64,000 bases of DNA from Bacillota bacterium (GCA_029006345.1 JAQXGK010000073.1:13822-77821); one strand, 5' to 3'; numbered from the stretch's first letter, positions 2,698 to 17,848 are shown. Numbers and translations are program-made. The notes: a model not told the origin generated them from the letters alone.

Positions 2698-2733
2698 AAA
2701 AAACCGGTTGAGAATCATCTCAACCGGTTTTTT
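2698..2733. terminator. Bidirectional rho-independent terminator between convergent genes
   Basis: Perfect 10-bp stem CCGGTTGAGA (2704-2713) / TCTCAACCGG (2718-2727) with a 4-nt loop. It is flanked by A6 (2698-2703) and T6 (2728-2733), so it can terminate both the + strand unit ending at 2679 and the - strand array ending at 2732. Confidence 0.8.
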
Positions 2734-3424: not shown

Positions 3425-3972
3425 ACATAATCATCCCTTTCCGAAAAGCATACATATGTCAGAACATCGTGATAGGTACCGTCCTTATAAACCTTATCCT
3501 TTGCTGTGCTCTCCGAATGAAAACCGCATTTTTTCAGAACCCGGGCGCTCCTTACATTTTCGCTGAACAGCTCAGCCTCAAGACGGTGAAGTCCCAGCCT
3601 GCAAAAGGCATATCTGACCGCTGCTCTTAAAGCCTCGGTTGCGTATCCTTTGCCCCATTCGCCTGAAATCAACTGATAAGCAACGCTTCCGCGTCTGTGG
3701 GTAAGAGAAGCATACAGCGAAACAGTGCCGATAAAGCGTCCGTCCCGCCTTACCGCCCAATAGGTATACTCCGGCTGGTCGCACATATCCGTGATGCTTT
3801 CGATATACTCTATTGCCTGCTGCAACGTGTCCGCACGGTACTGCATCATAAACCTGTTAACCTCGCTGTCCCGCATCAGGCAATTATAAATGACTTCCGC
3901 GTCGTTCGTATTCAGTTTGTCAAGAATAAGCCGCGTCGTTTCAATTCGCGGTGTGCCTGCAAAATCGCACAT
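3421..3972 (-). CDS. GNAT family N-acetyltransferase (RimJ/RimL-like)
   Basis: The ORF-track version (to 4269) overlaps the permease gene. The ATG at 3972 is preceded by GGAGGAAG with 7-nt spacing, giving a 183-aa protein. RLILDKL..., WAVRRDGRFIGTVSL and WGKGYATEALRAAVRYAF fit the GNAT acetyl-CoA binding core. Confidence 0.75.
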   Translation of the reverse strand: MCDFAGTPRIETTRLILDKLNTNDAEVIYNCLMRDSEVNRFMMQYRADTLQQAIEYIESITDMCDQPEYTYWAVRRDGRFIGTVSLYASLTHRRGSVAYQLISGEWGKGYATEALRAAVRYAFCRLGLHRLEAELFSENVRSARVLKKCGFHSESTAKDKVYKDGTYHDVLTYVCFSERDDYV

Positions 3973-4025
3973 AAAGCTTCCTCCGGAAATAGAAAATCCG
4001 CCGAAATTCGGCGGATTTTTCATTA

Positions 4026-5069
4026 TTAGCCAACGATACCGGAACGCTCGATACCCTGAACAAGATACTTCTGGCAGAAGCAGTACAGGATAATAAGCGG
4101 CGCGATAATCAACAGTACTGATGTGTTCTTGATAGCCGAATTGTAAAGGTCCTGTGCGACAAACGAGCTCGAAGAAAGGCTCTTGGGCACGCTGACAATG
4201 TTCGGCAGCAAGTAGGTTCCGTCTGTGGTAAAGAACATGTTTGTATAGAAAGAGTCTGTCCACTGCCACGAGAACGAGAACAGGAACACCGTGATCATCA
4301 TGGGTACTGAAAGCGGAATAATAATCTTGACGAAGGTGCGGAAGGTACCTGAACCATCGACATATGCCGCTTCCTCAAGCTCATCCGGAACACCCTTGAA
4401 GAACTGTCTGAGCATGAATATATACAAACCGTTCTTAAATGCAATTCCGCCAAAAGAGAGAATTCCAAGCGGGACGTAGGTGTTAATAAGGTTGATGCTT
4501 GACTGGCTTACTATGCCCATTTTATTCAGAAGTCCGATTATACCGAATACATCAAAGTAGCGGAACTTCATGAACATAGAAAGCATGAGAGTCTGATGAG
4601 GAACAACCATTGTAAATATTACCGCAAAGAACAATATCTTGTTGCCCTTGAATTTGAACTTTGCAAAGCCGTATGCTACCAATGTGCATATCGCCGTTTG
4701 AACGACCGCGCAAAGCAAAGACAGGGTAAAGGTATTTAAGAATGCCTTTAAGTAATTGTTCTCAACAATGATTGCCTTATAGGTTGTCAGTGTGGGATAC
4801 TTCGGAATCAGCTTGACCGTAACATCTACAAAGTCCTCAGGGCTCATGAACGAGCCTGCAATCTTCGAGATAAACGGGAAAAGGACGATGTACGAAATAC
4901 CGATAAGAAGGACAAGGCGGAATATAACAAGTACTACTTTCTTGAGAAAGAATCCCGAAAAATACTTGAGCTTCATTCTCTGGGCTTGTGTAAGCTTGCC
5001 GTCGAAATCGACCTTCATAGCTTTTCTTTCTTGCTTTCTGCCGACCTTGCCGGTTTTTGTAGAATTCAT
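4026..5069 (-). CDS. Carbohydrate-type ABC transporter permease (second pair, MalG-like)
   Basis: 347 aa with multiple TM segments and an EAA coupling loop (DELEEAAYVDGSGTFRTFVKIIIP). AAAGGAGG lies 8 nt upstream of the ATG at 5069. Confidence 0.85.
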   Translation of the reverse strand: MNSTKTGKVGRKQERKAMKVDFDGKLTQAQRMKLKYFSGFFLKKVVLVIFRLVLLIGISYIVLFPFISKIAGSFMSPEDFVDVTVKLIPKYPTLTTYKAIIVENNYLKAFLNTFTLSLLCAVVQTAICTLVAYGFAKFKFKGNKILFFAVIFTMVVPHQTLMLSMFMKFRYFDVFGIIGLLNKMGIVSQSSINLINTYVPLGILSFGGIAFKNGLYIFMLRQFFKGVPDELEEAAYVDGSGTFRTFVKIIIPLSVPMMITVFLFSFSWQWTDSFYTNMFFTTDGTYLLPNIVSVPKSLSSSSFVAQDLYNSAIKNTSVLLIIAPLIILYCFCQKYLVQGIERSGIVG

Positions 5070-5086
5070 TTCGTATACCTCCTTTC

Positions 5087-6073
5087 TTAGTCTCTGCGCT
5101 GATAGAAGACGAAGGCGGAAATAATTCCGGCTACGGCTGCTATTATGAGAATTACAAGTAAGAAGTACATCCAGGACATCGCAGACGAAAGAACATTTCC
5201 TCCGCTTTGCGTGTAAACCTCGTTGATGTAAGTCATAACCTGATTAGAGCTTGATGTGAACGAGTCGATAATGGTATAAATCGAATTTACCAATATCATC
5301 GGGCTGATCATCGGGAATGTAATCTTCCAGAAGGTTTCCCAAGCCGTCGCACCCTCTACGGTACAGGACTCGTAAATAGCCGGTGATATGGACTGTAGGC
5401 CTGCGAGGAAGATAAGCATCTGAACACCGGACTTGTTTACAATGTTGTATATGTTATTGACTATATCGACGACATAATCAACAAGGCTCTGTCCGACCTT
5501 CATATTCCTGAACAGGAGCTGGATATCGACTGACGATATAATTTCGGAAGCTTTGCTCGAGGACTCGCCTCCCGTATCTATCGACTCTCCGCTGCCGTAG
5601 TAGCTTGCGAAGGAGTTGTTCATATCGATTTTCTCAACAATACCGGTAGAAAGAATAACCGGTATGAAGAATATTGCTCTGAACAATGTTCTGCCGGCCA
5701 TCTTCTGATTAAGAAGAATAGCCATAAAGAGCGAGAAGATGACGATTGCCGGGATGTTAAACAAAAGATTCTGTATTCCCGTTACAAGCGTTTCAACATA
5801 GCTCGGGTCGACAAACAGTGCGTTTGAATAGTTATCAAAGCCAACCCAGTCAAGGTCGTATCCGCCGCCCTTAAGTATTACTATCTCATGGAAGCTGTAG
5901 TTAATGGAATTGCACACTATCGGTACATAGATAGTCAGGAAAATAATTACGAAAGGCAGGACGAACAGCCAACCCATACGAGCTTTTCTCTTGTCGAGTG
6001 ACTTTGGCTTGGTCTTTTTCTTGGGAGCCACTGCTGCGACTTTCGGTGCCTTTACTTTTGCTTCACCGTTCAT
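5087..6073 (-). CDS. Carbohydrate-type ABC transporter permease (second pair, MalF-like)
   Basis: Polytopic membrane protein with an EAA-like loop (AIYESCTVEGATAWETFWKITFP). The ORF-track GTG at 6082 abuts the SD. The ATG at 6073 sits 9 nt after GAAAGGAAAGG and is preferred. The N-terminus is lysine-rich and cytoplasmic. Confidence 0.85.
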   Translation of the reverse strand: MNGEAKVKAPKVAAVAPKKKTKPKSLDKRKARMGWLFVLPFVIIFLTIYVPIVCNSINYSFHEIVILKGGGYDLDWVGFDNYSNALFVDPSYVETLVTGIQNLLFNIPAIVIFSLFMAILLNQKMAGRTLFRAIFFIPVILSTGIVEKIDMNNSFASYYGSGESIDTGGESSSKASEIISSVDIQLLFRNMKVGQSLVDYVVDIVNNIYNIVNKSGVQMLIFLAGLQSISPAIYESCTVEGATAWETFWKITFPMISPMILVNSIYTIIDSFTSSSNQVMTYINEVYTQSGGNVLSSAMSWMYFLLVILIIAAVAGIISAFVFYQRRD

Positions 6074-6097
6074 TAGATTCACCCTTTCCTTTCATAA

Positions 6098-9025
6098 TTA
6101 TGATGCGGATGAATCCGCAGGAGCGCCGTCATCAGCTGCGGCGTCAACGTCTGCGTTTTCATCCTCAGGCTCAGGAGCCTTGATATCTGCAAATTCCTCG
6201 GCTGTGCCGACAAGATAGCCCATAGGAGCGATCTTTGTGTCGTTTCCGACTGTAACTTCTTGATTGTTATAGTTAAGAAGGAAGCATATACCATTGTCAT
6301 AGGTGACCTTGACAACGCGGTAATCGACGAACTCGTGAGCGTCTATGAGAGCATTCTTGACCTGCTTGAGATCGCTGTTTATCTCTTTGTAAATCGAGAT
6401 AAGATCATCGTACCAAATGCTGTATGCGACTGAGAAGTAATCCGAGAACTCGGTGTTCTTAAGCTCACTTGTGTTGTCGTAAGAAAGAACGAAGTACGGA
6501 TCGGCGCCGTTCTCAATAGTTTTGAGAAGCGTGGTCTTATAGTCGCCTGCAAGGTTGAGCGCCTCACCAGCAAAGTTGATGTAGCCGTGAAGCACGATAC
6601 CTACGAAAGGTACATCCTCGCTTGCAGCAAGACGTGAGCTCGATTCAAGCGGTACATCAAGAATATGAGAAGCGTATTGATATACATACGAGTTGCCGCC
6701 GGTGGTAAGGATTTCATAGCCTGCATCGTTTACTTCGCCGAGCATATCGGTAACAAGCTTTCTGGAATCCTCACGGTTGATGGGCATGTCCTCGTTGTGG
6801 TCGGTATTCAGCGAATCGCCGATGGAACCGAGTGAAATACCGGTATTTTCGAACTCGGAATAATCCTTGTTCATCTTTTCAAAGAACGAGCTGAGAACAT
6901 TTGCCGAGATTATCATGGGTCCGCGGTTGTTAAAGGTTTGAGCTATCGGATCGTAAGTCTTTCTGAGAGCTGCCTTGCCTTCAACTGTCTGAGCGGCGTC
7001 ATCCTTATAGTTGAAACCGTCGAACCACCCGTCAGACTGAACGTATGTAAAGTCAAAGTCGGGGAAGAAACCGATATTGTTTTCCTTAGTGAAATCAACA
7101 AGATCCTGGAAACCTTTGTCTCCGCCGAGCTTGCTTTCGACATCTACTTGGGTCGGAGGAGTGTAAACCATACCGCCGTTGCACCATCCGAGGTAGCGCA
7201 AATTGATGTTGGTAATTCCCTCATCCATAAGCTCGGAAAGCATTGTCTTGGCCTGTTCAAAGGTAGTAAGGGTTGTCTTGACAGTGACCGGCATACCGAT
7301 TATACGCTGGGTAGTTTCGATATCGCCGAAGGTCTCGAGATACAGCGGGATGTCCTCGCTGTCGTCGACAGTCTTGTTGATGATACCCTCTTTCTCAAGG
7401 TAATTTCTGTAGGCCTTTGCCATACCGACATAGTCAGCGTCTTCATCCTTGAGCATTACTATCTTAAGAGTGTAGTTGCCGGTATATTTTCTCTGCGCCT
7501 CAACCTCATAGGTTGCGCTGGCACCCGAAACAGTAATACCGTCGAGCGGATAACTGTCGCGCTGGCGCGGGAACACCGTCATAAATACAGACTGATATTT
7601 GTGAAGTGTACCGCCGTGCTCGCTTGTCAGCTGCGAAAGCGACGCACCCTCTTCTATTATTGCTACATAGCCCTCAGTAGATTTGGTAACTTCCTTTTCG
7701 GTCGTCCAATCATACTGCTGATTACCCTGACTGTCGAGAATCGGATTTCCTGCTTCATCAACAATTACGGTTGAAACATTCTTGGAATGTGTAACCGCGG
7801 TATCACGGATTACGCCGTATACGGGAATACGCCATGTTTCCATGTTTCCGCCGGTCACTTCGTGGAATCCGAAGTCGTTGCCGTACATCTTACCGGTGAT
7901 TGTTACCGAATTCTGTCCGACATCCTCAAAACGCACCAATGTGCCGGAGCCGTCGGGGATAAATGTATATCCGGTTTCGTCGTAGTTTCCTGCACCGAAG
8001 TAAGGAAGAATCGAAACGCTGGTAAGCTTGTAGATGGATGAGTCAAACTGAATACCGTTTGCAGGAAGTCTGACCTTTATGCCGTCCTCCTCGATGTAGT
8101 ATTCGAGAGCCATCTTAAACAAGGGAGGTGAAGTGTCCTCAAGAACATATCCCGTTTCCTCGTGGTCGGCAATCATGTCTTCCATCGTGTAATCGGTAAA
8201 TTTCTTGACGTAGCCTTCAAGAGTATCAAGTTCCTTGTCGGATATATCCGATACAAGTACGTAAACCGGCATTTCCTCTGCTATCGGATACTGCTTGAGT
8301 ATTTCATCCTTTTCCTTCTTGGTGAGTGTTTCATTGTTGATATCGATAAGCGTATAGAATGCCGTTATTTTGTTTCTTTCAAAATCGCTTGAAATTTTTG
8401 AGAGAATGTGTTCCTCAAATCTCATCTGAGAGATACATCTCGGAACCAGCTTTCTCTTGGCGGTCTTACCTATAGCGTATTCTACGCGGATACCGCCTTT
8501 GATAGCCTTGAGCTGGATCTGCGAGCTCTGAGCAGCGTGTGTAAAGCTGTTGAACTCATACTCCTTGTCGTTATCCTTGTACTTGAGGATAATCTGAGAA
8601 AGGAGGTCCGCCTTGACGCTTGCGGAAGATGCCGTGCTTCCGATGTCGTAGGGGTTTGTGAAAAGGATCTGTCCCGTAGTCGTATTCTTTACCGCGACTT
8701 CGCCTGTAAACTCATGGTAGTACAGTTCATATCCGTAGTTTGAATACTTGAGCACCATTGTCTCAAGCTTGGCTTCGGGAGTGGCATAAGCCTCAGCGGT
8801 GTAGTCGATGGCAGCTTCGCCTTCTTCGCCCTCTTCGCCGCTTTCAGCGCCTTCCGTTGTGGTGACTGTGCTGTCACCGGTGGCCGCAGACGTTGTATCG
8901 CCTGCCGCCGTTGTTGAATCTGCTGCCGTTACCTCATCTGCGTAAGAAGTCAGAACAGAAGAGCATGTAATACTGAATAGCATTACAAAAGCAAGCAAGA
9001 GTGACATGAATTTAATTTTTCTCAT
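6098..9025 (-). CDS. Secreted 975-aa protein of unknown function (DUF5696-like from memory; possible glycosidase-like barrel)
   Basis: AGGAG lies 7 nt upstream of the ATG at 9025. It has an N-terminal signal peptide (MRKIKFMSLLLAFVMLFSITCSSVLTSYA), a Thr/Ser/Gly/Glu-rich linker and an acidic C-terminal tail. No catalytic motif was recognised with certainty. The segment NINLRYLGWCNGGM...GFFPDFDF is reminiscent of (beta/alpha)8 glycosidase-like proteins. Confidence 0.55.
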   Translation of the reverse strand: MRKIKFMSLLLAFVMLFSITCSSVLTSYADEVTAADSTTAAGDTTSAATGDSTVTTTEGAESGEEGEEGEAAIDYTAEAYATPEAKLETMVLKYSNYGYELYYHEFTGEVAVKNTTTGQILFTNPYDIGSTASSASVKADLLSQIILKYKDNDKEYEFNSFTHAAQSSQIQLKAIKGGIRVEYAIGKTAKRKLVPRCISQMRFEEHILSKISSDFERNKITAFYTLIDINNETLTKKEKDEILKQYPIAEEMPVYVLVSDISDKELDTLEGYVKKFTDYTMEDMIADHEETGYVLEDTSPPLFKMALEYYIEEDGIKVRLPANGIQFDSSIYKLTSVSILPYFGAGNYDETGYTFIPDGSGTLVRFEDVGQNSVTITGKMYGNDFGFHEVTGGNMETWRIPVYGVIRDTAVTHSKNVSTVIVDEAGNPILDSQGNQQYDWTTEKEVTKSTEGYVAIIEEGASLSQLTSEHGGTLHKYQSVFMTVFPRQRDSYPLDGITVSGASATYEVEAQRKYTGNYTLKIVMLKDEDADYVGMAKAYRNYLEKEGIINKTVDDSEDIPLYLETFGDIETTQRIIGMPVTVKTTLTTFEQAKTMLSELMDEGITNINLRYLGWCNGGMVYTPPTQVDVESKLGGDKGFQDLVDFTKENNIGFFPDFDFTYVQSDGWFDGFNYKDDAAQTVEGKAALRKTYDPIAQTFNNRGPMIISANVLSSFFEKMNKDYSEFENTGISLGSIGDSLNTDHNEDMPINREDSRKLVTDMLGEVNDAGYEILTTGGNSYVYQYASHILDVPLESSSRLAASEDVPFVGIVLHGYINFAGEALNLAGDYKTTLLKTIENGADPYFVLSYDNTSELKNTEFSDYFSVAYSIWYDDLISIYKEINSDLKQVKNALIDAHEFVDYRVVKVTYDNGICFLLNYNNQEVTVGNDTKIAPMGYLVGTAEEFADIKAPEPEDENADVDAAADDGAPADSSAS

Positions 9026-9047
9026 TACTTTTCTCCTAATCTTATTT

Positions 9048-11186
9048 TTACGCTCGGTAGGACAGCTCTACGAAGATGTTGTAGACAAACGAGAACACCT
9101 TTGTAAGAAGTCCGGAGAACAAAACGCCTATGAACATAATGAACGCCATTCCGACTATTGTTCCGAGTGTCGTCAGTACATTCTTGCCGATGGTATAATC
9201 GTGGATAACCATCATTCCGAAGAACAGAAGCAAGCCCGTCCAAATATATGCAAACGATACAAGGAGCGAAATAATAGCTTGTTCGTCAAGTGAAAGCACA
9301 TTGGAAATAAGTGTTGCGGGTATTACGAGAATCGGTATAGGCAGAAGCGCATATCCGGTAGCCATAACGATATCCTTAAAGCTGCCTTCGCCGTCAAACA
9401 GAGTCGTAAGACACCAGTTCGCCACGCAGAACAGAAGGAAAGGAGTCAGTACCGAAAGCACTTGACCGAATATGGTGGATTTCGACGGGTCTGCGTTAAA
9501 TATGTACGCAGTTCCGAACGTCTGATAAATGAATGCTAAAATCGTCAGAAAAACGCAGAACAGCGAACCCTTCAGGTTGCCTCGTTTCTCGTGCTTCATA
9601 TCCCAGAAGCCGTCAAACGGATGGTAAATAATGTGGAAACCGTAAATCAACGCTTCCTTGAAGGTTCTCTTGTCCTTTGTAACCTGACCGGCCTTGTTGA
9701 CTTTGCGCGTATACTTGTTGAACTTAGAAACAAGAACAAAGAATACGATGAGTACTATCGGAATTACTACGATATACTTTTCGATCCACTGCTTTCTTAT
9801 TGCCTTGAAAGCTTCGGAGTAGCCCTCGGTATCGGTAGCATACGAGTAGTAAAGCTCAGCCTGTTCATAGTCGCCGTCGCGCTTGAGGCTGTCTGCTATA
9901 CCGATATATGACTGGTCAAAGTTCGCGTTTCTCTGGAGAATATCGGTCCAGAACCTTGCCGCATCGTCATAGTTGCGGTCTCTCGTATTCTGAAGAGCCT
10001 GGGCAATACAATCGCCGTATTCTGTTCTCTTGTAAACGGTAATGGAATCTGTCGTCTTATCAAGCACAAGTATATTCGTGCCCTTATAAGTAATTGCGTT
10101 GACATTCTGAAGATTACCGAGCTGCATACCCTTGTCGCCGAATATGAACAGCAGGTTGCCTTGCTCGTCATAGGTATAAATCTTCTGACGGTTAGCGTCG
10201 ATTATCGACCACATACCGTTCGGACCGAGAGCTACGTCAACTATCGAGGAAGCACCGGTTACCGCGTCCGGGTTAACGTTCATCGACTGAACATCTATTT
10301 CTCCCGACGGAGGATAGAAGCCGGTACGCTGCATAACGTCGTAACCGGAAGGATTAAGCTTTTTAACAGGCGCATAGTCGCCGGACTTATCCTTGCCTTC
10401 TATTGCCGACTGTTGCTTTTCGGGGTCTATCGAGTTTGTGGTAACATACACGAAGCCGGACTCGTCGATTGTAATATTGTTATACTCAGTGGGAACCAGC
10501 TTTTTGCTCTGAGCGCGCTGAGCGTCGGTCTGGAATGCTCTCCAGAAGATTTCCCAGGCAGTCGGGTTAGTCTTCTGAGCTCCGAGGAAGCCTATAAACG
10601 AACCGTCTCCGTTAAGCTGGATAACGCCGTAGTGAGTAGTAGAGGAAATTACATAAATTCTTCCGGCATTATCGACTGCCAATGCAATCGGTTTATAAAT
10701 GTGGTTTTCGGGGAATACATCGCCTGTCGGCTCTTCGATTCTCCTCTTGAAAGCGCAGGTCTTTTTATCGAATACAACTATTCGGTTGTTATCCGTATCT
10801 GCTACGAATATTTCATCATCCTTTACAAACACACCGCTGGGGGTGGCAAGCGAATCTGCGACGCCCTGGTCGTTTGTAAAGCTGTCGATAACATTTGTAA
10901 CTTTGTAGTTTGAGTCGCAAAGAATAATTCTGTTATTGCTGGAATCGGCAATATAGACATTCTCGTCCTCATCCACCTCAATATCCGACGGATCGTTGAG
11001 TGCTACAAGAAGCTTCATATCTGCGCTCGTAACCGTTCTGTCGGGAACATATGCGTGGGGAGAAGCTATTGCTTCGCCGTCGATAGTATATATATAGGTA
11101 GAATACGGAACGGCCGCAGAGGTCTGACATACAAGGAATATCGAAATAAACAGAGCTGCAAATGCAATTTTTAATAATCTTTTCAT
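9048..11186 (-). CDS. Fusion protein: signal peptide + NHL-repeat beta-propeller + TPR-like segment + TM + C-terminal Yip1-type 5-TM domain
   Basis: AAGGAGGG lies 8 nt upstream of the ATG at 11186. NHL-like blades are present (VYIADSSNNRIILCD, IFVADTDNNRIVVFD, AVDNAGRIYVIS, FVYVTT, ILVLDKTTDSITVY). A TPR-like helical region spans residues about 395-468 (NYDDAARFWTDILQRN..., GDYEQAELYYSYA), followed by a TM helix at 471-487. The hydrophobic C-terminal third (about 540-700) resembles Yip1-family membrane domains. Confidence 0.7.
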   Translation of the reverse strand: MKRLLKIAFAALFISIFLVCQTSAAVPYSTYIYTIDGEAIASPHAYVPDRTVTSADMKLLVALNDPSDIEVDEDENVYIADSSNNRIILCDSNYKVTNVIDSFTNDQGVADSLATPSGVFVKDDEIFVADTDNNRIVVFDKKTCAFKRRIEEPTGDVFPENHIYKPIALAVDNAGRIYVISSTTHYGVIQLNGDGSFIGFLGAQKTNPTAWEIFWRAFQTDAQRAQSKKLVPTEYNNITIDESGFVYVTTNSIDPEKQQSAIEGKDKSGDYAPVKKLNPSGYDVMQRTGFYPPSGEIDVQSMNVNPDAVTGASSIVDVALGPNGMWSIIDANRQKIYTYDEQGNLLFIFGDKGMQLGNLQNVNAITYKGTNILVLDKTTDSITVYKRTEYGDCIAQALQNTRDRNYDDAARFWTDILQRNANFDQSYIGIADSLKRDGDYEQAELYYSYATDTEGYSEAFKAIRKQWIEKYIVVIPIVLIVFFVLVSKFNKYTRKVNKAGQVTKDKRTFKEALIYGFHIIYHPFDGFWDMKHEKRGNLKGSLFCVFLTILAFIYQTFGTAYIFNADPSKSTIFGQVLSVLTPFLLFCVANWCLTTLFDGEGSFKDIVMATGYALLPIPILVIPATLISNVLSLDEQAIISLLVSFAYIWTGLLLFFGMMVIHDYTIGKNVLTTLGTIVGMAFIMFIGVLFSGLLTKVFSFVYNIFVELSYRA

Positions 11187-11200
11187 TCTATCAGCCCTCC

Positions 11201-12073
11201 TTAATCCTTCATACCTGAAGTAGACATAGTTTCAATGACATTGCTCTGCGAAACCACGAATACCAAAATGGGCACCATCATCATTACGACCGTGGAAGCA
11301 GCCGCAGCGCCCGCACGGGAGATGCCTTCGGATACGATCTGTTGAATAGCGTAGTTAAATGTCTTGAGCTGCTCGCTGTGTATGTAAAGCGACGAACCCA
11401 TGTTCCACAAATCCTTGAAGCAGAACATGATAAGTGTAAGCCAAGCCGGTTTAACCATCGGCATGACTATCTTCCAGAGGATTCGCCACTCACCCGCACC
11501 GTCAAGACGCGCACTTTCAAGCACCGAATCGGGAACCGATGAATCCATAAACTGCTTCATCAGGTAAAGTCCGAGGGATGTTGCAAATGCCGGTACGATG
11601 AGGGCAAGATAGGTATCTACCCAGTGGAAGGCACTCATTGTCAGGAAGTTTGTGATAGTGGTAACGGTAGCGTTGAACATAAGAGAATACTCAACGACTT
11701 TGAAAAGAAATACTCGTCCGGGGAATTTCAACTTAGAAAGAGCATATGCCGCAAAGGACGAAAGCATAACGTTTCCGAATGTACCGACCACCGATACAAA
11801 TACAGTGTTGAAAATATATCTTGAGAAAGGAACCCAAGAGGAGCCCATCAGTCTGAAGAGGTCTCCGAAGTTTTTGAAAGTCGGGTTAACAACATAGAAT
11901 CTGGGGGGATATACCCACAGCTCATCGAGCGGTTTAAGCGACTGAACGACAACATAGACCATGGGAAGAAACATAAACGCTCCGAAGATAAGAAGCACTA
12001 TGTTGATACCGAGGTCTCCTCCGAAGGAACGGTTCAGTGAGTGGTTTGACTTTTTGATTCTGAGCTTTGACAT
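11201..12073 (-). CDS. Carbohydrate-type ABC transporter permease (first pair, MalG-like)
   Basis: 290 aa and polytopic, with an EAA loop (SVLESARLDGAGEWRILWKIVMP). The ATG at 12073 lies 3 nt after the upstream stop. Confidence 0.9.
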   Translation of the reverse strand: MSKLRIKKSNHSLNRSFGGDLGINIVLLIFGAFMFLPMVYVVVQSLKPLDELWVYPPRFYVVNPTFKNFGDLFRLMGSSWVPFSRYIFNTVFVSVVGTFGNVMLSSFAAYALSKLKFPGRVFLFKVVEYSLMFNATVTTITNFLTMSAFHWVDTYLALIVPAFATSLGLYLMKQFMDSSVPDSVLESARLDGAGEWRILWKIVMPMVKPAWLTLIMFCFKDLWNMGSSLYIHSEQLKTFNYAIQQIVSEGISRAGAAAASTVVMMMVPILVFVVSQSNVIETMSTSGMKD

Positions 12074-12076
12074 GCC

Positions 12077-13033
12077 TTACTGACCTACCTTCCTCAAAAG
12101 TTTGTTGACTAGCAAGTTAGCTCCGATCATCAGTGCAAACAGCAAAACCGCTATTGCCGAAGCATAACCCATTTCAAACCTGGTGTTACCGTAGTCTTCG
12201 AGGTGATGCATGATGGTGTGAGCGCAGTAGTCCGGGCTGGGGAAGCCTACCATACCGGTAATTACGGCACCGAAGCCGAAGGACTGTGTTATAGACAGAA
12301 TAGCACCGAGCATCATCTGCGGCTTGATTGCGGGAAGCGTAACAAACCACAGCTCCTGCCAACGGTTCTTGACACCGTCGACCGCCGCCGCCTCGTACAT
12401 GCTTCGGTCAACGACCTGGTAGCCGGCTATAAACTGAAGGAACGAGGTTCCGAGTGAAGTCCACAACGCGACTATAATAACGATAGGCATTATATACGAC
12501 GGGTCTGTCAGGAATGCAATAGGCGTCGTAATGACACCCATTTCCATGAGAAGACCGTTGATAATACCGTGCTGGTCGGCGGTAAACATATACTGCCAAA
12601 TCAGGTAAGCGTTACCCGCGATACTGGGAGCGTAGAAGATAAGCGTCATTACCGCTCTGACCTTGGGTGAAAGCTCATTGATGAACCATGCCAAAATCAT
12701 TGACATCATGAACGATACAGGTCCTGTAATTGCCGCAAAAACGAAGGTGTTCTTGATAGCAAGAAGGAATATATCGTCATCCAGCAGAAGCCTTATGTAG
12801 TTGTCAAGAAAGACAAACTTTGGAGCCTCAAGCAGGTTGAACAGCGTAAAGCTGAAAAACACCGAAAGGATAACCGGCAATACCGTGAATATAAAGAAGA
12901 TGATAAAGAACGGAGCAAGAAGCAGATAAGCTATCTTGTTGTCCTTCATTTCCTTCAGCGTCCAGCGGAACTTGCTCATATCCGAACGATTAACAGGTTT
13001 TTTACTCGCCTTTACGGCGGTCGTCTTAGACAT
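12077..13033 (-). CDS. Carbohydrate-type ABC transporter permease (first pair, MalF-like)
   Basis: The ORF-track TTG at 13054 was rejected. The ATG at 13033 has AAGGAGAG 7 nt upstream. EAA loop is SMYEAAAVDGVKNRWQELWFVTLP. Confidence 0.9.
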   Translation of the reverse strand: MSKTTAVKASKKPVNRSDMSKFRWTLKEMKDNKIAYLLLAPFFIIFFIFTVLPVILSVFFSFTLFNLLEAPKFVFLDNYIRLLLDDDIFLLAIKNTFVFAAITGPVSFMMSMILAWFINELSPKVRAVMTLIFYAPSIAGNAYLIWQYMFTADQHGIINGLLMEMGVITTPIAFLTDPSYIMPIVIIVALWTSLGTSFLQFIAGYQVVDRSMYEAAAVDGVKNRWQELWFVTLPAIKPQMMLGAILSITQSFGFGAVITGMVGFPSPDYCAHTIMHHLEDYGNTRFEMGYASAIAVLLFALMIGANLLVNKLLRKVGQ

Positions 13034-13077
13034 GTATTTTCTCTCCTTAATCAATAGTATCTGTCACAAGTCCGCTG

Positions 13078-16000
13078 TTAGTTCTTCGTATTATCCGGAG
13101 TAGCAGCTGCGGTTGTTGCCGAGGTGTCCTCGGAACTTGTCGTTTCCGAGGAAGCCTCAGTTTTATCTGAAGTGTCTGCCTTATCGGCAGTTGTTGCAGT
13201 TTCCTTATCCTTATCGTCTCTGTCGGCGTAATCTTCCAATATCGGAAGGTCAAACTCCTGACGCTTCCTCGAAAGCTCTGAATTGATGTCGTCTATGTAG
13301 CCGAGCATTGTCGAGACCGGATCCTCAAGTTCGTTGTAAACTGCAAGGAATGCGAAGCTGATGTATCTTGTTACGATATAACCGCCGGGCATTTCGGGGG
13401 TATATGTCAGATGCTGGAACTGAAGCTCGAGGTTGTCGCGGTCGCTTGCCGTCCAGGGCTGAGAATTAAGCGCTTCAAGATTTGCCGTAGCGTACTGACC
13501 GGACGCACCGAGCAATGCCTTCTTTTCCTTACCGAAGGTGCTCTGAGCATCTGTGTCGGTCCACCACTTCATAAATTCCCACGCCTCATCTTTATTCTCG
13601 CAGCCGTTCATCATCATAACGCCTGTTACGGTACCTGCCGAGTCGTGATTTATGTTTCCGTCCTCATCCTTGGTTCCGGGAAGAAGTGTGAATTCCCAAA
13701 GACCTCTGATTTCGGGAGCGAATACCTGCAGCTGGTTATACATGGTATAATCGGCAACTGCTATGGGCATTTCACCGCTTCTGAAACGGTTTGCAAAATC
13801 GTATGCATACGGGAAGTTATACATTGTAAACAACTCGCACATTTCCTTGAAGCAATCAAGAGCAACGTTGGAGTCGAGGTTTATTTCCATACCGTAGGTA
13901 TAATCGATACCGTCCTCAGAAACCTCTCCGATTCCAGGCTTATAAAGCCCTTCTCCCCTCTGATAGAGGAAGATAAGCTCGCCTGCCATGGAGTTCGGGA
14001 ATCCGAACTGGAGGTTGTTGCTCTGAAGCACGGGAAGAATGTCGTAAACATCGTCCCATGTCTCCGGAACCTCCATATCAAGCTCTGCAAATACGTCCTT
14101 GCGGTAGAACAGCATTGAGAAAGTCTCGGTCTCGGGAAGAGCATAAGCAACATTGTAGAGTGTCAGCGGTCCCATAGCCGAAGCGTCGAAGCGCTTTGTA
14201 ACCTCATCGAAGCCTTCAAGGTCGGAGATAGGAAGCACTGCTGAACGGATAGCGTAGTTGATGACGTCCGCCGAAGCGTTAGACAGCGACACATCGGGTC
14301 CGGTGCCGGAAAGTGTAGCGGGAAGCAGCGTACCTACCGCAACCAGCTTTAAGTCAACATTTATTCCTGTCTTGGGAGTAAATGTATCATCGATCATCGA
14401 ACGGATTATCTGCGACTGGTCTCGAGAGGTTGCAGTCCAAACCTCAATGGGATTTGTTGTCTCCACTTCTCCGGCTTCGTTAACCTTGGTGCCCAAAGAG
14501 CTGTAGTCGCTGAAGAAGCTCATTATAAATGACTCGAACTCGAAGGCCAATGACTCGCCGAAGTTTGCATCGGCTCTCGGGATCTCTGCTTGTGCAGATT
14601 GGATGGTCATGTAGTCTATCTCGAGTGGCTGGCTCTTGGTGTTCATGATCCATGTTCCAAGGCTCGCGACCTTATCCTTCATATCCGAGAAGTTGCCCGC
14701 TATCTTGTCCTCATCGCTGCCCATTGTTTCAAGCAGCCATGCGGTGTTATCGAGTATGACCGAATCCTCGCCCTTAAGACCGACCGTTTCTTCAAGTCTG
14801 TCGGAAACCTCATAAAGTCTCTTGGATTCTTCAAGCATACCTTCGAGAACCTCAGGAAGGTTCTTCTTAAATTCGTAATCGCGGTAAATGTCGGGATTGG
14901 GACCCGTCAGCATAAGAATCTTCAGATAATAATTATTGATGGTGGTCATGGAAAGCTCGACTTCGCGGAGAATGCTTGCCATTCCTCCGAGAACGGCTTC
15001 CATGGTAAGCGTGTATTCCTCGCCGGCTTCAAAGTAGAAACGGTAAACCGTGTCCTCGCCGTCGCCCAGCAAGCAGGACTGCCAAGAGGAATCATACTTA
15101 AAGGAAAGACTCTTGGCCTCCTCAAAAGGATACTCACCGTTTATTCTGAGCGCTCTCGACGAAAACAGACCGGAATTGACATCCTGCTTGAATCTCATTC
15201 CTATCGTATAGAGACCCGACTCATTAACCTTGAATTTCCAGGAAATGGTCTGACCTGCATCCGTCCACTTGGAACCGCCGATTGTATTAAGACAGATGAG
15301 CGATGCGTCCTGAGGATCGGAAATAGGGCTTGTTCTGTCGTAAATCGGATATATAAGGTCTGTCGATGTGGAATCGGGGAACTCAGCGTCAACCTTTACC
15401 GACTGATCTGCCGAAACATCTTTATATCCTGCCGCTTCATACTCGGCGTAAACTTCCTCGTATGTCTTTGTATCTTCAGCGGCATAAAACTTTATCGATT
15501 TTATCGCTACAGGCTCCTGAACAGCCTCAAAGGTCACTATATGCTCACCTGCAGTGAGGTAAAAGTCAAAGGGCTCTGCAAAGTATCCGGTGGAATCCTT
15601 CGCAAATGTCTCGCACCATTCGGGCGTTTCGATGTTGCTCGGGCGAACCTCGTTGCCGTTGGCGTCTAGCTCGAAGCCGCGCGGAGCCGCGTTGGATATC
15701 TCCTCGTACTGGTTGCGCCATACGCCGTTCATAAATACATAACGGGCTTCCTTAAAAGGATAAGTTCCGTCCAAAAGGATAGCTCTCTCAATAGTGCTTC
15801 CTCTGCCCTTGACGGGATAATACTCTATCTTGCAGTTGTAGAGTCCCTCATCGTCAATATTGAACTTCCACGATACTCTTCCGCTGTCGGAAATGGTTAA
15901 GCAGTCAATGCCTTCGATGTTTTCCGCCACCACCTCAGCAGTGGTTGCCTCGGGAAGGTAATCGACGCCGTTGATTTCGGCGATGCTGGTTCCTTTCTCA

Positions 16001-16203
16001 TAACCTCCGTACAAAGTAACATATGTATCGTAGGTCACGGAATTCATAAGCTCCTTGATCTGCTCAAGGTTGGTCTTTTCTTCGTTCAGCTTCTCGATAG
16101 CCGCGTCAATATTGGCATCAGCCGAAACGATTACGGCGCAAGCGGACATAACGAGCGTTAAAACAAGCGTAACCGCAAGAGCCTTTGTGAGAATTCTTTT
16201 CAT
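13078..16203 (-). CDS. Giant (1041-aa) extracellular solute-binding protein with two N-terminal CBM-like beta-sandwich modules
   Basis: GGGAGGA lies upstream of the ATG at 16203, and there is a signal/lipoprotein-like N-terminus (LVLTLVMSACAV). Two internally duplicated modules are described in the findings. The C-terminal half has the family-1 sugar SBP pattern (PIEVWTATSRDQSQII..., GFPNSMAGELIFLYQRG..., WEFMKWWTDTDAQ). The tail is Ser/Thr/Asp-rich. Confidence 0.8.
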   Translation of the reverse strand: MKRILTKALAVTLVLTLVMSACAVIVSADANIDAAIEKLNEEKTNLEQIKELMNSVTYDTYVTLYGGYEKGTSIAEINGVDYLPEATTAEVVAENIEGIDCLTISDSGRVSWKFNIDDEGLYNCKIEYYPVKGRGSTIERAILLDGTYPFKEARYVFMNGVWRNQYEEISNAAPRGFELDANGNEVRPSNIETPEWCETFAKDSTGYFAEPFDFYLTAGEHIVTFEAVQEPVAIKSIKFYAAEDTKTYEEVYAEYEAAGYKDVSADQSVKVDAEFPDSTSTDLIYPIYDRTSPISDPQDASLICLNTIGGSKWTDAGQTISWKFKVNESGLYTIGMRFKQDVNSGLFSSRALRINGEYPFEEAKSLSFKYDSSWQSCLLGDGEDTVYRFYFEAGEEYTLTMEAVLGGMASILREVELSMTTINNYYLKILMLTGPNPDIYRDYEFKKNLPEVLEGMLEESKRLYEVSDRLEETVGLKGEDSVILDNTAWLLETMGSDEDKIAGNFSDMKDKVASLGTWIMNTKSQPLEIDYMTIQSAQAEIPRADANFGESLAFEFESFIMSFFSDYSSLGTKVNEAGEVETTNPIEVWTATSRDQSQIIRSMIDDTFTPKTGINVDLKLVAVGTLLPATLSGTGPDVSLSNASADVINYAIRSAVLPISDLEGFDEVTKRFDASAMGPLTLYNVAYALPETETFSMLFYRKDVFAELDMEVPETWDDVYDILPVLQSNNLQFGFPNSMAGELIFLYQRGEGLYKPGIGEVSEDGIDYTYGMEINLDSNVALDCFKEMCELFTMYNFPYAYDFANRFRSGEMPIAVADYTMYNQLQVFAPEIRGLWEFTLLPGTKDEDGNINHDSAGTVTGVMMMNGCENKDEAWEFMKWWTDTDAQSTFGKEKKALLGASGQYATANLEALNSQPWTASDRDNLELQFQHLTYTPEMPGGYIVTRYISFAFLAVYNELEDPVSTMLGYIDDINSELSRKRQEFDLPILEDYADRDDKDKETATTADKADTSDKTEASSETTSSEDTSATTAAATPDNTKN

Positions 16204-16340
16204 CGAGCTGGGTTCCTCCCTATAGAATGATTTGCGATAATCGATAAAGAATAATATGCTTATACACAGAAATCACCGCGGCGGCCTGCGCGGCGCACGC
16301 ACTAAACTGCCACGATAATTTGATGTAATTATCACCGTAG

Positions 16341-16370
16341 ATTTTAGCACAGCCAAAAAGCCTTTGTCAA
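16341..16370 (-). promoter_or_regulatory. Putative sigma-A promoter of the transporter array
   Basis: On the - strand: TTGACA (16370-16365), an 18-nt spacer, then TGcTAAAAT (extended -10, hexamer at 16346-16341). It lies about 135 nt upstream of the SBP start codon. Sequence-only prediction. Confidence 0.4.
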
Positions 16371-16813
16371 GAAATATATATATGTAGGCAACATGAAAAA
16401 CTGCGAAATACCAAGGCTTTTCACAATATACGCATCCGTGCGTTTCGTAAATCTCGATGCAAAAGCAGAACAATTATAAATTTTGTAAAACTGCACAAAA
16501 AGTCAGATAAAAGTTATAACTCTAAAAATGAGTTTTTTAATAACCCTGAAATATCAACAGTATTTGGCACCGTATTTGATTTTGAATTGTCAGAGTTATA
16601 TATTTTATTTTGCGATTATTATCAACAGCTTAATTTTCATCATTACTATTTTTCTGTCAAATTACGGCAAAAAAACAGGTCGAATTAGCGATATAACCAA
16701 GCGCATTTTGGCAATATTCGACAATTTCGACCCTTGATTTTTTGCAGTTTTAACTATATGCAAAAGCATCTATAATGATTCTGATTTTTGATTTATCTTT
16801 GTTCAATATGACG

Positions 16814-17848
16814 TCATTTTATAACTCCGCCGAAAAGCAGTCTGTCGTCGGAGTAAAATACCGCAGACTGACCGCGGGCCGAAAGCCGCGAGGGTGATAA
16901 AAGCCGCACGCTTGCCGTGCCGTCAGACACCGTCACCCGGGCGTGTGCGGGCGGCTGACGGTACCTTAGCTTGACACAGCACTCCAGCTCGCCTTCAAAC
17001 TCAGCGATTCCGGAAAAATTCAGATTTCCGACAGTAACGGCGTCGGCAATACAGTCGTCATCATATCCGAGTACAATATTTCCGCTTGCGGCGTCCACTG
17101 ACAGCACATATGCACGCCGCCCCAGGGAGATATCAAGCCCCCTGCGCTGTCCCACGGTATATCTGAATATACCTTTGTGACGTCCCAGAACCCTTCCGTT
17201 TATATCGACGAAGTTTCCTTCCCGCAATATGGGATTATCATTATCGCCGATTCGCTTTTGTATAAAAGATACATAGTCGTTATCCGGCACAAAGCATATC
17301 TCGTTGCTCTCCCTTGTATCGACAGGCACAATGTCCGAGCAAAACTGCTTTACCTCCTTCTTGACCGTTCCGGCAAGCGGAGTAAGTATGCGCGAGAGCT
17401 GCTTTTGTGTTAACTGCCAGAGAAAATACGACTGGTCCTTGGAGGCATCCTTGCCGCGCGAAACATAATATCTTCCGCTCTGTCGGTCAAACGACACTCC
17501 GGCATAATGTCCGGTGGCGACCTTATCTATACCGAGCCGGTCCGCGAAAGATATGAGAGATGCGAATTTCATGGTCCTGTTGCATCTCGCACACGGATTC
17601 GGCGTTCTGCCCTCAGTATATTCCCTGACAAAATAATCTATGACATTTCGCTCAAAATCCGCTCTGCAATCATATATGTGAAGCGGCACACCCAGCCGTT
17701 TTGCAACAATTTCCGCCCTGTCCGGGGCCGATTGGTCAAAAAACCGCAGAAAACAAGCCGTTACATCGTATCCCTCATCCATCAATATACGACAGCAGGC
17801 GGCGCTGTCAACGCCGCCCGATAGTCCGACGAGAACCGTCTTTTTCAT
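16814..17848 (-). CDS. mnmA: tRNA 2-thiouridine(34) synthase MnmA
   Basis: PP-loop VLVGLSGGVDSA, plus ATGHYA and the catalytic Cys region (NPCARCN). The ATG at 17848 (5 nt after the nifU stop) is preferred over the ORF-track TTG at 17869. Confidence 0.9.
   Translation of the reverse strand: MKKTVLVGLSGGVDSAACCRILMDEGYDVTACFLRFFDQSAPDRAEIVAKRLGVPLHIYDCRADFERNVIDYFVREYTEGRTPNPCARCNRTMKFASLISFADRLGIDKVATGHYAGVSFDRQSGRYYVSRGKDASKDQSYFLWQLTQKQLSRILTPLAGTVKKEVKQFCSDIVPVDTRESNEICFVPDNDYVSFIQKRIGDNDNPILREGNFVDINGRVLGRHKGIFRYTVGQRRGLDISLGRRAYVLSVDAASGNIVLGYDDDCIADAVTVGNLNFSGIAEFEGELECCVKLRYRQPPAHARVTVSDGTASVRLLSPSRLSARGQSAVFYSDDRLLFGGVIK

Follow-up and report, generated by a model that had tools for sequence, protein, structure and literature searches.

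Operon layout and boundaries

Seven genes run on the minus strand from position 16203 down to 4026 of the window, which is the whole 64-kb stretch of DNA that was analysed. The first gene encodes a giant solute-binding protein (SBP) of 1041 aa (13078–16203), delineated from its open reading frame, Pfam, an AF2 model and Foldseek. It is followed by a MalF/UgpA-like permease, P1 (12077–13054), and a MalG/UgpE-like permease, P2 (11201–12073). Next come the genes for a membrane-anchored accessory protein of 712 aa with Pfam NHL and Yip1 domains (9048–11186) and a DUF5696 protein of 975 aa (6098–9025), and the array is completed by a second MalF/UgpA-like permease, P3 (5087–6082), and a MalG-like permease, P4 (4026–5069). 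The intergenic gaps are 23, 3, 14, 22, 15 and 17 nt in this order. The same-strand arrangement, the gap lengths and the Shine-Dalgarno sites of the seven genes, as given in an earlier sequence-only reading, were all reproduced, and a profile-HMM search with Pfam agreed with its domain calls (SBP_bac_1, four copies of BPD_transp_1, NHL, Yip1 and DUF5696). The true start of P1 is more likely the ATG at 13033, which is preceded by the Shine-Dalgarno site AAGGAGAG and gives a protein of 318 aa, the same as the call in a related locus (L089); with this start, the first gap becomes 44 nt.

At the upstream end, a sigma-70-type promoter-like site (TTGACA, 18 nt, TAAAAT, with a TG extension) is found at 16341–16370 on the minus strand, with 11 of 12 positions matching. 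It is located within the 610 nt that separate mnmA from the first gene of the cassette. Promoter-like sites in the region are not enriched over shuffled sequences (20 found, 22 expected), so that the weight of this site, proposed earlier as a consensus-like promoter and indeed present, comes from its position in the upstream spacer. The 5' leader contains a long stem-loop followed by a U-rich stretch (16270–16322, minus strand), in which a terminator-like site was flagged at 16295–16274. The leader folds at −40.4 kcal/mol (z −2.2), and an Rfam search of it returned no family match. This stem-loop may be an attenuator.

At the downstream end, an intrinsic terminator was identified from its stem and folding at 3987–4020 on the minus strand (AAAAAUCCGCCG-AAU-UUCGGCGGAUUUU, then CUAUUU), which begins 6 nt past the stop codon of P4. 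It has a perfect 8-bp GC-rich stem (12 bp including the flanking A/U pairs), followed by UUUUCUAUUU. The 54-nt stretch that contains it (3975–4028) folds at −19.6 kcal/mol with a z of −3.05, and only one of 200 shuffles folds as well. The earlier statement that there is no hairpin terminator until 2698–2733 was therefore wrong, as was the extent of the transcription unit drawn from it; a simple scanner had missed the site because the A/U extension of the stem consumed the T-tract. With a strong terminator directly after P4, the operon has exactly seven genes. The GNAT gene further downstream is served by a GGAGGA site of its own, with its ATG at 3972. The seven genes are one real, sharply bounded operon.

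Conservation, hosts and genomic surroundings

The order SBP-P1-P2-NHL/Yip1-DUF5696-P3-P4 and the strand are identical in 85 of 85 related loci from MAGs of uncultured Clostridia, of which 14 are cut by contig ends; the cassette is complete and in the same order in all 71 of the others. The Clostridia that carry it live in the gut or rumen, and the genes that flank it are unrelated between the MAG loci, except for mnmA. Orthologous cassettes were also found in two cultured hosts, Butyrivibrio fibrisolvens (pNP243) and Paenibacillus cellulosilyticus (on a plasmid). In both, the best match of every part is at the syntenic position and the order is unchanged, with proteins 25–57% identical to those of the window. 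The gene set and its order are therefore kept across dozens of species and two classes of Bacillota.

Identical order and strand in every related locus examined place the arrangement far beyond chance. It could be argued that the cassette consists of two transport units and two surface proteins that have nothing to do with one another and merely lie adjacent and co-oriented, as P1 and P2 are only distantly related to P3 and P4. However, this is scarcely credible when the 71 complete loci, from different species and with different flanking genes, all agree, when the order holds at the identity levels of the Butyrivibrio and Paenibacillus proteins, and when gaps of 3–23 nt (44 nt before P1 if ATG 13033 is used) are enclosed by one promoter-like site and one terminator. 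The conservation data effectively refute it. The neighbourhood comparison thus bears out the earlier proposal that the seven genes form one functional unit.

The Butyrivibrio locus differs in several details. NHL and YIP1 are split genes there, and two ordinary SBP genes, which might serve P3–P4 in this organism, lie downstream of P4. A histidine kinase gene, a response regulator gene and a GH43_24-like gene are found near the cassette; the latter encodes an exo-beta-1,3-galactanase-like protein and overlaps the cassette start, which is the sole hint at a substrate from the genomic context and points to type II arabinogalactan for that one locus. Searches of all 85 MAG loci for genes of a histidine kinase, a response regulator, GH43 or a UgpC-type ATPase near the cassette gave none. 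Neither in the window nor in the MAG loci does a regulator, a cytoplasmic glycosidase or an ATPase adjoin the cassette, which is unusual for a nutrient-utilisation locus and counts against a role in glycan uptake.

The gene calls around the MAG cassettes were inspected for three loci (L001, L003 and L005). In these and in the window, housekeeping genes surround the cassette (mnmA, nifU/nifS, ribosomal proteins, tRNA synthetases). Elsewhere in the window, wall-related genes are present, namely PBP5, LD-carboxypeptidase, RmlA/RmlB-like genes, GT2 and YfhO. Such surroundings, together with the missing sensors, GH43 and ATPase of the MAG loci, would suit a housekeeping cell-envelope system that recycles or remodels wall polysaccharide or capsule fragments of the cell itself, or scavenges such material from the community, and this would explain the constitutive-looking position among core genes. 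This explanation is nevertheless improbable: the wall genes are 12–30 kb distant and are not conserved neighbours, the Butyrivibrio cassette has an enzyme for plant glycans and a sugar-sensing two-component system beside it, and the CBM35-like modules and MalE-like fold described below are typical of dietary glycan capture.

The encoded proteins

A MalF/UgpA-type and MalG/UgpE-type pair of BPD_transp_1 proteins with EAA loops occurs twice in the cassette, as P1–P2 and as P3–P4. All four loops listed earlier were found: YEAAAVDG in P1, LESARLDG in P2, and the EAA-type loops YESCTVEG and EEAAYVDG in the second pair. P1 and P3 share 23% identity, and P2 and P4 share 24%, which indicates ancient, distinct paralogous pairs. 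From their sequences, P1–P2 and P3–P4 are assigned as separate heterodimers, both of the type-I (CUT1-like) class of ABC importer permeases. Between TM3 and TM4, P3 carries a loop of some 65 aa that is predicted to be extracytoplasmic, and P4 has an insertion relative to P2.

The ATPase for these permeases is not encoded nearby. A motif scan of the 64-kb window found no Walker A/LSGGQ pair, and tblastn of the window found no match with a UgpC/MsmX-type ATPase and nothing with an ABC2-type nucleotide-binding domain (NBD; best E 0.33), in agreement with the earlier observation. NBDs are likewise missing near the MAG cassettes, except for rare unlinked cases. In Paenibacillus cellulosilyticus, a ugpC/MsmX-type ATPase gene lies directly upstream of the cassette. 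These findings support the earlier suggestion of a CUT1-type importer that borrows its ATPase.

The 1041-aa binding protein (AF2 model, pLDDT 86.1) starts with a signal/anchor helix and two CBM35-like beta-sandwiches (about residues 75–240 and 268–404), followed by a four-helix bundle (408–523), a MalE-like class-1 SBP domain (586–983) and a disordered acidic Ser/Thr tail. The Pfam SBP_bac_1 match (E 6e-20) is confined to residues 597–887. Foldseek related the SBP domain to the oligosaccharide SBPs 5ci5, 9xf5 and 5ysb, with TM-scores, normalised to target length, of 0.72–0.81. The N-terminal assignment relies on the family: the window's protein alone gives only a sub-threshold Pfam match to Golvesin_C, the homologues P0142 and P0182 pass the CBM_35 cut-off, and the family profile of the N-terminal region matches the CBM35 of the CITase 5x7g (E 4.8e-6). 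Fusion of CBM35-like modules to a MalE-like oligosaccharide-binding fold fits the capture of a polymeric glycan that had been proposed. This is the only class-1 SBP for two permease pairs, as was also noted before; no second recognisable binding protein for the second importer was found in the window or in any MAG locus.

The 712-aa protein has, in order, a signal peptide, an NHL beta-propeller on the extracytoplasmic side, a helical region resembling TPRs, one TM helix, a conserved motif in the cytoplasm (HPFDGFWDxKxEKRG) and a Yip1 domain with five TM segments. Residues 61–205 match NHL propellers in the PDB. The Yip1 (PF04893) match covers residues 518–685 and scores 58.5 bits (gathering threshold 28.6), with five hydrophobic segments found at 542–694. 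This architecture was derived from the TM segments and from aligning the protein with its orthologues, among them the products of the separate NHL and YIP1 genes into which it is split in Butyrivibrio.

The DUF5696 protein scores 539 bits on the Pfam family (PF18952; gathering cut-off 25.6, E 1.7e-161). The protein begins with a signal peptide and a low-complexity linker, and its AF2 model (pLDDT 85.4) has a beta-sandwich on either side of a (beta/alpha)8 barrel, one N-terminal and the other C-terminal. Foldseek matched the model to 5opq (E 5e-28) and 5wzn (E 4e-23), with TM-scores normalised to target length of 0.68–0.74 overall and 0.72–0.74 for 5wzn. The order of sandwich, barrel and sandwich is shared with NagBb (5WZN), a GH129 alpha-N-acetylgalactosaminidase, and with DagB/ZgGH129 (5OPQ, 8RZK), a GH129-like 3,6-anhydro-D-galactosidase (PMC5698469). 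The DUF5696 profile found NagBb among PDB sequences (E 3e-4), hhalign aligned DUF5696 with GH129 over 430 columns with a probability of 94.7%, and a NagBb-like sequence scored 61 bits on Pfam DUF5696, which is above the threshold of that model, and 31.8 bits on PF11308. In a tblastn search of 72,556 plasmids with a NagBb-like fragment, the Paenibacillus cassette gene was the only match. The Pfam models Glyco_hydro_129 (PF11308) and Glyco_hydro_101 did not match the window protein even at E 10. Several barrel motifs can be aligned with GH129, namely GW...G, FD(A/G), (T/N)R(R/E), VP..(V/L)(Y/L)H and NG(G/A). By predicted fold and by profile, DUF5696 is a remote homologue of the GH129/GH101 glycosidases, with the GH101 endo-alpha-N-acetylgalactosaminidases being more distant relatives than GH129. 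The sequence-only reading, which saw no known hydrolase in the array, was inaccurate in this respect, and its statement that the 975-aa protein has no characterised function was overstated. DUF5696 is not mentioned in the literature searched, consistent with the gap that the same reading had indicated.

The active-site positions were then compared with those of NagBb. Its acid/base is taken here to be Glu478, a residue number reportedly from Sato et al. 2017. Counted from Trp398 of NagBb (PMC8106489), Glu478 is the first Glu of SSSEE. Asp435, which lies at the end of beta4, is a catalytic residue of NagBb (PMC5698469); its counterpart in ZgGH129 is Asp486. According to hhalign and MAFFT, which agree and which represent a sequence/profile alignment to a composite NagBb-like sequence from frameshifted metagenome fragments rather than a structural superposition, the nucleophile Asp435 is replaced by Ser731 in the window protein and the acid/base by Gly777, and the beta7 His-Asp of NagBb aligns with His-Gly. 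Of 87 loci, 80 have Ser at the nucleophile position, four have Ala, one has Gly and one has Asp; at the acid/base position, 84 have Gly and three have Ala.

An ordinary Gram-positive polysaccharide-utilisation locus is a possible, less favoured explanation of these data. DUF5696 would then be an active secreted exo-/endo-glycosidase of a new GH129-related family with relocated catalytic residues, the permease pairs would import two classes of product, and NHL/Yip1 would be an extra binding or anchoring protein. The fold and the detectable homology agree with this, as do about ten invariant polar residues (including E308, D358, D384, D669 and E838), three of them acidic residues of the N-terminal domain. 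ZgGH129 sets a precedent by which DUF5696 could still be an enzyme, since it lacks the NagBb acid/base position, has its second catalytic residue at another place, and depends on an Asp that the N-domain of the partner subunit contributes (PMC5698469). The nucleophile Asp is retained in the Butyrivibrio and Paenibacillus proteins, and the GH43_24-like gene and two-component genes of Butyrivibrio resemble a classical utilisation locus. On the other hand, Ser, Ala or Gly at the beta4 nucleophile position indicates no catalytic constraint there in this clade, all 87 loci have Gly or Ala in place of the acid/base, the beta7 Asp is replaced, and the second importer lacks a second binding protein in the window and the MAG loci. 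The "processing" step of the earlier proposal is accordingly not secured. As the nucleophile is lost, DUF5696 in this clade is more likely, from its sequence, to be a glycan-holding receptor or gate than a classical retaining hydrolase.

A proposed capture-and-import system and its known relatives

Taken together, the cassette probably encodes a self-contained and so far unstudied CUT1-class system for the capture and import of a sugar polymer, in which a pair of translocons is joined by two accessory proteins at the surface. The apparatus would be situated, on balance, at the cell surface of a Gram-positive anaerobe, where a complex glycan is captured and its oligosaccharides are imported. 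The polymer would be retained at the surface by the CBM35-like modules, with the MalE-like domain delivering oligosaccharides to P1–P2. DUF5696 fills the slot in the gene order where a second binding protein is expected; it may bind the glycan, possibly trim it via a non-canonical active site, and hand it to P3–P4 with their enlarged outward loops. The NHL propeller, tethered by the Yip1 domain, could act as a scaffold for assembly or as another surface for glycan binding, and so hold the soluble parts at both translocons, analogous to YknW with YknXYZ. Both translocons would draw their energy from a common MsmX/UgpC-type ATPase whose gene would lie elsewhere in the genome. Physical association of the seven products is suggested by gene linkage only.

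The closest known systems are compared as follows. Among the CUT1 importers of Firmicutes, those that rely on a common MsmX/MsmK ATPase, such as MalEFG-MsmX and the Bacillus subtilis systems for maltodextrin/arabinan, also have EAA-loop permeases, a class-1 MalE-like domain and an ATPase outside the operon, and in Paenibacillus a ugpC/MsmX-type gene is attached. In contrast, the cassette has two permease heterodimers for one recognisable binding protein, which is about 2.4 times the normal size and carries CBM35-like modules and a helical bundle, and it has the conserved NHL/Yip1 and DUF5696 genes between the permease pairs. The gpPULs of Lachnospiraceae and Ruminococcaceae, as the concept is generally understood, likewise combine a carbohydrate ABC transporter with a glycosidase-family protein in gut and rumen Clostridia. 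However, gpPULs are typically mosaic, whereas the content and order of the cassette are fixed, and most of its copies are without a regulator or a canonical CAZyme.

The GH129/GH101 genes, unlike that of DUF5696, are not known to be embedded in an ABC transporter operon. For the Yip1 domain, the likeness is to the YknWXYZ system of Bacillus subtilis. Its membrane protein YknW belongs to the Yip1 family, is encoded with the YknXYZ ABC transporter, modulates or organises its assembly and is needed for the complex (PMC4887032). This likeness concerns the Yip1 domain. YknW has no NHL propeller, and YknYZ is a MacB-type exporter, whereas the permeases of the cassette are of the type-I importer class.

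The seven-gene unit and its surroundings

The cassette consists of seven minus-strand genes running from 16203 to 4026: a giant substrate-binding protein (SBP, 1041 aa, 13078-16203), the permeases P1 (12077-13054) and P2 (11201-12073), an NHL/Yip1 protein (712 aa, 9048-11186), a DUF5696 protein (975 aa, 6098-9025) and the permeases P3 (5087-6082) and P4 (4026-5069). The positions of these ORFs agree with the sequence-only reading, as do the intergenic gaps of 23, 3, 14, 22, 15 and 17 nt, the four EAA loops and the Shine-Dalgarno sites, and all of its domain calls were upheld by Pfam. The start of P1 is probably ATG 13033, which is preceded by AAGGAGAG, and not TTG 13054. The window stems from a metagenome-assembled genome (MAG) in NCBI (proteins MDD6312793.1 and MDD6312794.1).

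It had been claimed that no hairpin terminator occurs until 2698-2733, which was found to be wrong. An intrinsic terminator, a perfect GC-rich hairpin with a U-tract, is located at 4020-3987, 6 nt past the P4 stop. The 54-nt stretch that bears it has a folding energy of -19.6 kcal/mol (z -3.05). Since the GNAT gene downstream of this terminator has its own ribosome-binding site (GGAGGA, ATG 3972), the predicted transcription unit comprises exactly seven genes, about 12.3 kb, with a promoter-like site and a terminator. The promoter-like site at 16370-16341, read as consensus-like from the sequence, does match 11/12 positions and has a TG extension, but shuffled sequence yields such sites at least as often, and its credibility comes mainly from its position.

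The gene for the GNAT acetyltransferase and one for a small alpha/beta-hydrolase make up a unit of their own (2732-3972, minus strand), flanked by the cassette terminator and by a strong bidirectional terminator at 2697-2734. The pair was considered as an esterase/acetyltransferase part of the cassette and rejected, because a terminator separates it from P4 and because the two genes were found beside the cassette in none of the 85 related MAG loci searched.

On the other side, the spacer between mnmA and the cassette (16204-16813) is unusually long, at 610 nt, and AT-rich; a second promoter-like site is present in it at 16660-16633. The cassette leader contains a long stem-loop at about 16322-16270 with a U-rich tail, which could be an attenuator. 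A search of the 5' leader and the upstream spacer against Rfam matched no family. A mnmA-nifU-nifS block (16814-19493) lies directly upstream, and a tyrosine recombinase (Phage_integrase with a SAM-like N-domain, probably XerC/D-like) is encoded at 22382-23266 on the minus strand. Cell-envelope glycan genes, encoding a GT2, a DegT-type aminotransferase, an RmlA-like nucleotidyltransferase, an RmlB-like dehydratase and a YfhO-family membrane protein, are present at 30135-34146 and 42151-44739; by position they are unrelated to the cassette.

The window was also inspected for the missing ATPase. Neither a Walker A/signature pair nor a tblastn match to two NBD types was found, and Pfam scans of 20 of the other larger window ORFs returned housekeeping genes and no part of an ABC transporter. 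After these searches the idea that the window hides an ATPase was rejected, and the claim that none is encoded there stands.

Conservation and origin of the cassette

Three homologue neighbourhoods were found to hold the identical seven genes. In a scan of species representatives (one genome per species), a DUF5696 relative was detected in at least 563 genomes, from which the best 80 loci were retained. All seven window proteins were then compared by tblastn with 85 related loci. The arrangement SBP-P1-P2-NHL/Yip1-DUF5696-P3-P4 was found in one order and on one strand in 71 of them. The remaining 14 end at contig edges and each shows a contiguous stretch of the cassette order; none of the 85 deviates from it. 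The gene combination picked out in the sequence-only reading is therefore conserved, and chance adjacency of its genes is excluded by these data. The permeases are the best-conserved parts (52-81% identity); the SBP and the DUF5696 protein are at about 38-59%.

Orthologous cassettes are also present on large plasmids of two cultured organisms, Butyrivibrio fibrisolvens D1 (pNP243) and Paenibacillus cellulosilyticus KACC 14175. In either organism the best match of each window protein is the gene in the corresponding position of the cassette, with 25-57% identity; the cassette is therefore an old unit that has been retained intact in Clostridia and Bacilli. The Butyrivibrio cassette is preceded by genes for a histidine kinase, a response regulator and a GH43 enzyme, and two extra SBP genes of ordinary size follow its last permease. 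In Paenibacillus a ugpC ATPase gene lies immediately upstream of the cassette. Four of the 85 MAG loci (L005, L023, L036 and L048) have ABC ATPase-like genes no more than 10 kb from the cassette, in L023 at 15617-16372, about 700 nt beyond P4; these genes match MsmX/UgpC weakly (26-29% identity).

The flanks of the cassette vary among loci. mnmA is found upstream in 21 related loci (e.g., L001, L010 and L012-L016), a sign that part of the clade has inherited the cassette vertically at a fixed place in the chromosome. In some other loci, genes for ribosomal proteins, tRNA synthetases or sporulation are near the cassette. This housekeeping neighbourhood is the sole hint that the cassette might serve in the recycling of the cell's own envelope as a housekeeping function, a role that we consider very improbable.

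The DUF5696 family is very large: 6,096 clusters at 50% identity were counted at E <= 0.001, and at least 3,614 at E <= 1e-30. The best matches are mostly from rumen and gut Clostridia. Every member examined lies within the same seven-gene cassette, which ties the function of the family to this unusual ABC importer.

A glycosidase-like protein with altered catalytic positions

The 975-aa product is matched by Pfam DUF5696 with an E-value of 1.7e-161. An AlphaFold2 model built from 55 homologues (pLDDT 85.4, pTM 0.81) has a (beta/alpha)8 barrel set between one beta-sandwich and a second, C-terminal one. Using this model, a Foldseek search of the PDB ranked the GH129-like 3,6-anhydro-D-galactosidase of Zobellia (5opq, E 5e-28) first; GH101 enzymes, the Flavonifractor galactosaminidase and GH36, GH31 and GH13 enzymes followed at lower ranks. 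A direct PDB sequence search with the protein gave no match. The family profile retrieved NagBb, a GH129 alpha-N-acetylgalactosaminidase, from all PDB sequences (E 3e-4), and NagBb-like metagenome fragments carry precomputed Pfam matches to DUF5696 and GH101. NagBb (5wzn) is matched by fold as well, with a Foldseek E-value of 4e-23. When a NagBb-like fragment was searched against 72,556 plasmids, the sole match was the DUF5696 gene of the Paenibacillus cassette. As a search with a 140-aa NagBb fragment gave short frameshifted fragments alone, a composite GH129 sequence was made from these and from three reading frames of contig L088. This composite scores 61 bits against DUF5696, 39 against Glyco_hydro_101 and 32 against Glyco_hydro_129 in Pfam, and hhalign aligned it to the DUF5696 family alignment with a probability of 94.7% over 430 columns. 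The predicted fold and the agreeing sequence evidence thus place the protein in the GH129/GH101 superfamily, and the earlier description of the cassette as having no known hydrolase is inaccurate.

In many DUF5696 proteins, a long Ala/Glu/Lys-rich predicted coiled coil, stalk-like in appearance, is inserted ahead of the C-terminal beta-sandwich. Its length ranges from tens to more than 800 aa (examples are L061 9992-15265, encoding 1757 aa, and the homologues P0086, P0102, P0111 and P0120), and the proteins reach about 2,500 aa; the window protein is without it.

The catalytic residues were mapped with the composite NagBb-like sequence as the reference. Since hmmsearch and hmmalign covered the first part of the barrel only, the catalytic region was aligned by hhalign and, independently, by MAFFT --add, and the two concur. 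The NagBb nucleophile Asp435 (in AYLDVF) is aligned to Ser731, the acid/base Glu478 (in SSSEE) to Gly777, and the His-Asp of VYHD to His813-Gly814. Among 87 loci, position 731 is Ser in 80, Ala in four, Gly in one and Asp in one, with one alignment gap; position 777 is Gly in 84 and Ala in three. Judged from these alignments, the GH129 catalytic machinery is not retained, and the beta4 nucleophile is lost in this clade. In multiple alignments, both Butyrivibrio and Paenibacillus have Asp at position 731. Asp435 of NagBb is catalytic and is conserved as Asp486 in the Zobellia enzyme, ZgGH129, which is without the second NagBb catalytic position and relies on an N-domain Asp of the partner subunit (PMC5698469). 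In the DUF5696 family, E308, D358 and D384 of the N-terminal domain and D669, R751, N778, H813, N824 and E838 of the barrel are invariant, which suggests that a functional pocket is conserved. The sequence data are compatible with two readings of the protein, as a glycosidase derivative that binds glycans or as an enzyme whose site has been remodelled. If the latter applies, the cassette could be an ordinary utilisation locus with an active non-canonical glycosidase. The conserved pocket is compatible with this possibility and the replaced nucleophile speaks against it; we hold it to be quite possible, though the less likely reading.

A proposed importer with two translocons

In the SBP, Pfam SBP_bac_1 covers residues 597-887 only. 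The predicted model (pLDDT 86.1) opens with a hydrophobic helix at the N terminus. Beta-sandwiches follow at about 75-240 and 268-404, then four long helices packed in a bundle (408-523), the entire SBP fold (586-983) and, last, an acidic tail that is disordered. Oligosaccharide-binding proteins match the SBP half at TM-scores of 0.72-0.81 (normalised to target length), among them Thermotoga 5ci5 and proteins that bind cycloisomaltooligosaccharides, sophoro-oligosaccharides, maltodextrins and cycloalternan. The MalE-like half dominates a Foldseek search with the full model, which leaves the N-terminal half uncovered. For the N-terminal sandwiches, the window SBP alone gives a sub-threshold match only. 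The homologues P0142 and P0182 have CBM_35 above the Pfam cut-off, and a profile of the N-terminal region retrieves the CBM35 domain of cycloisomaltooligosaccharide glucanotransferase (E 4.8e-6), with weaker matches to further CBM35 structures. The sandwiches are therefore probably CBM35-like. Residues 1-30 of both the SBP and the DUF5696 protein look like type-I signal peptides with a conserved small-x-Ala site, at which Ala28 is invariant in the SBP family and Ala29 nearly invariant in the DUF5696 family. No clear lipobox, LPXTG motif or C-terminal anchor was found in either window protein.

The 712-aa protein, for which Pfam reports NHL repeats and a Yip1 domain, starts with a signal peptide, followed by the NHL propeller, a TPR-like segment, one TM helix, the strongly conserved motif HPFDGFWDxKxEKRG, which we infer to be cytoplasmic, and a five-TM Yip1 domain with a conserved ANWC(L/T)T(T/S)L..GEG. 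In Butyrivibrio (L086, 9729-11824), two overlapping genes stand in place of the fusion, one for the propeller and a TM helix of its own and one for YIP1, which shows that the parts need not be fused. YknW, a bacterial Yip1 protein, modulates the assembly of the YknXYZ ABC transporter (PMC4887032); no other functional precedent for a bacterial Yip1 protein was found. All four permeases carry BPD_transp_1 (Pfam). According to NCBIfam, P1 and P3 are of the UgpA/MalF type and P2 and P4 of the UgpE/MalG type. P1/P3 and P2/P4 share 23-24% identity only, which argues that the two pairs are ancient and distinct. P3 and P4 have insertions between TM3 and TM4 that would be extracytoplasmic.

The cassette would be a CUT1-type glycan importer of unusual composition, and its parts are consistent with an apparatus at the cell surface that handles a complex glycan. 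The data show which domains are present, where the operon begins and ends, that it is conserved and that a ugpC gene is attached to it in Paenibacillus; how such a machine may be assembled, how its labour may be divided and in which direction substrate would be handed on is what we infer. The polymer would be captured by the CBM35-like modules, and oligosaccharides would be passed by the MalE-like domain to P1-P2. The DUF5696 protein, whose slot in the gene order is where a second binding protein would sit, may hold or trim the glycan for P3-P4. The Yip1-anchored propeller would organise the assembly, and both translocons would be powered by a shared ATPase of the MsmX/UgpC type. The sole clue to the substrate comes from one locus. 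The Butyrivibrio GH43 gene is closest to GH43_24 exo-beta-1,3-galactanases (6eug, E 5e-60; 3vsf; 7bys), which suggests type II arabinogalactan as the substrate there. That gene (L086, 3846-4955) and the start of the giant SBP gene share 11 nt. No such GH43 neighbour was found near the MAG cassettes.

The components are of known kinds and bear generic RefSeq annotations. No published description was found of their combination, with two permease pairs, a CBM-bearing giant SBP, an NHL/Yip1 protein and an altered GH129-like protein, and the DUF5696 family is not mentioned in the literature searched. Solving the cassette would assign a function to thousands of genes in uncultured Oscillospiraceae that degrade fibre or host glycans, and would explain how a type-I importer uses two translocons with one binding protein. 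It would also give a first nutrient-uptake role for a bacterial Yip1/NHL protein, and would define a new family of enzymes related to GH129 or, alternatively, a glycosidase that has become a receptor. The cassette is directly testable in the cultured Butyrivibrio fibrisolvens D1 and Paenibacillus cellulosilyticus KACC 14175. A bolder reading, which we put forward as a speculation and rate as unlikely, is that of a new class of ABC import machine, in which two different type-I translocons are joined in a supercomplex by the Yip1-anchored beta-propeller and one of them is fed by a GH129-derived pseudo-glycosidase acting as receptor or gate, not by a classical binding protein. If this were true, the machine would let Gram-positive bacteria take up oligosaccharides of unusual size or branching and would be the functional counterpart of SusC/D.
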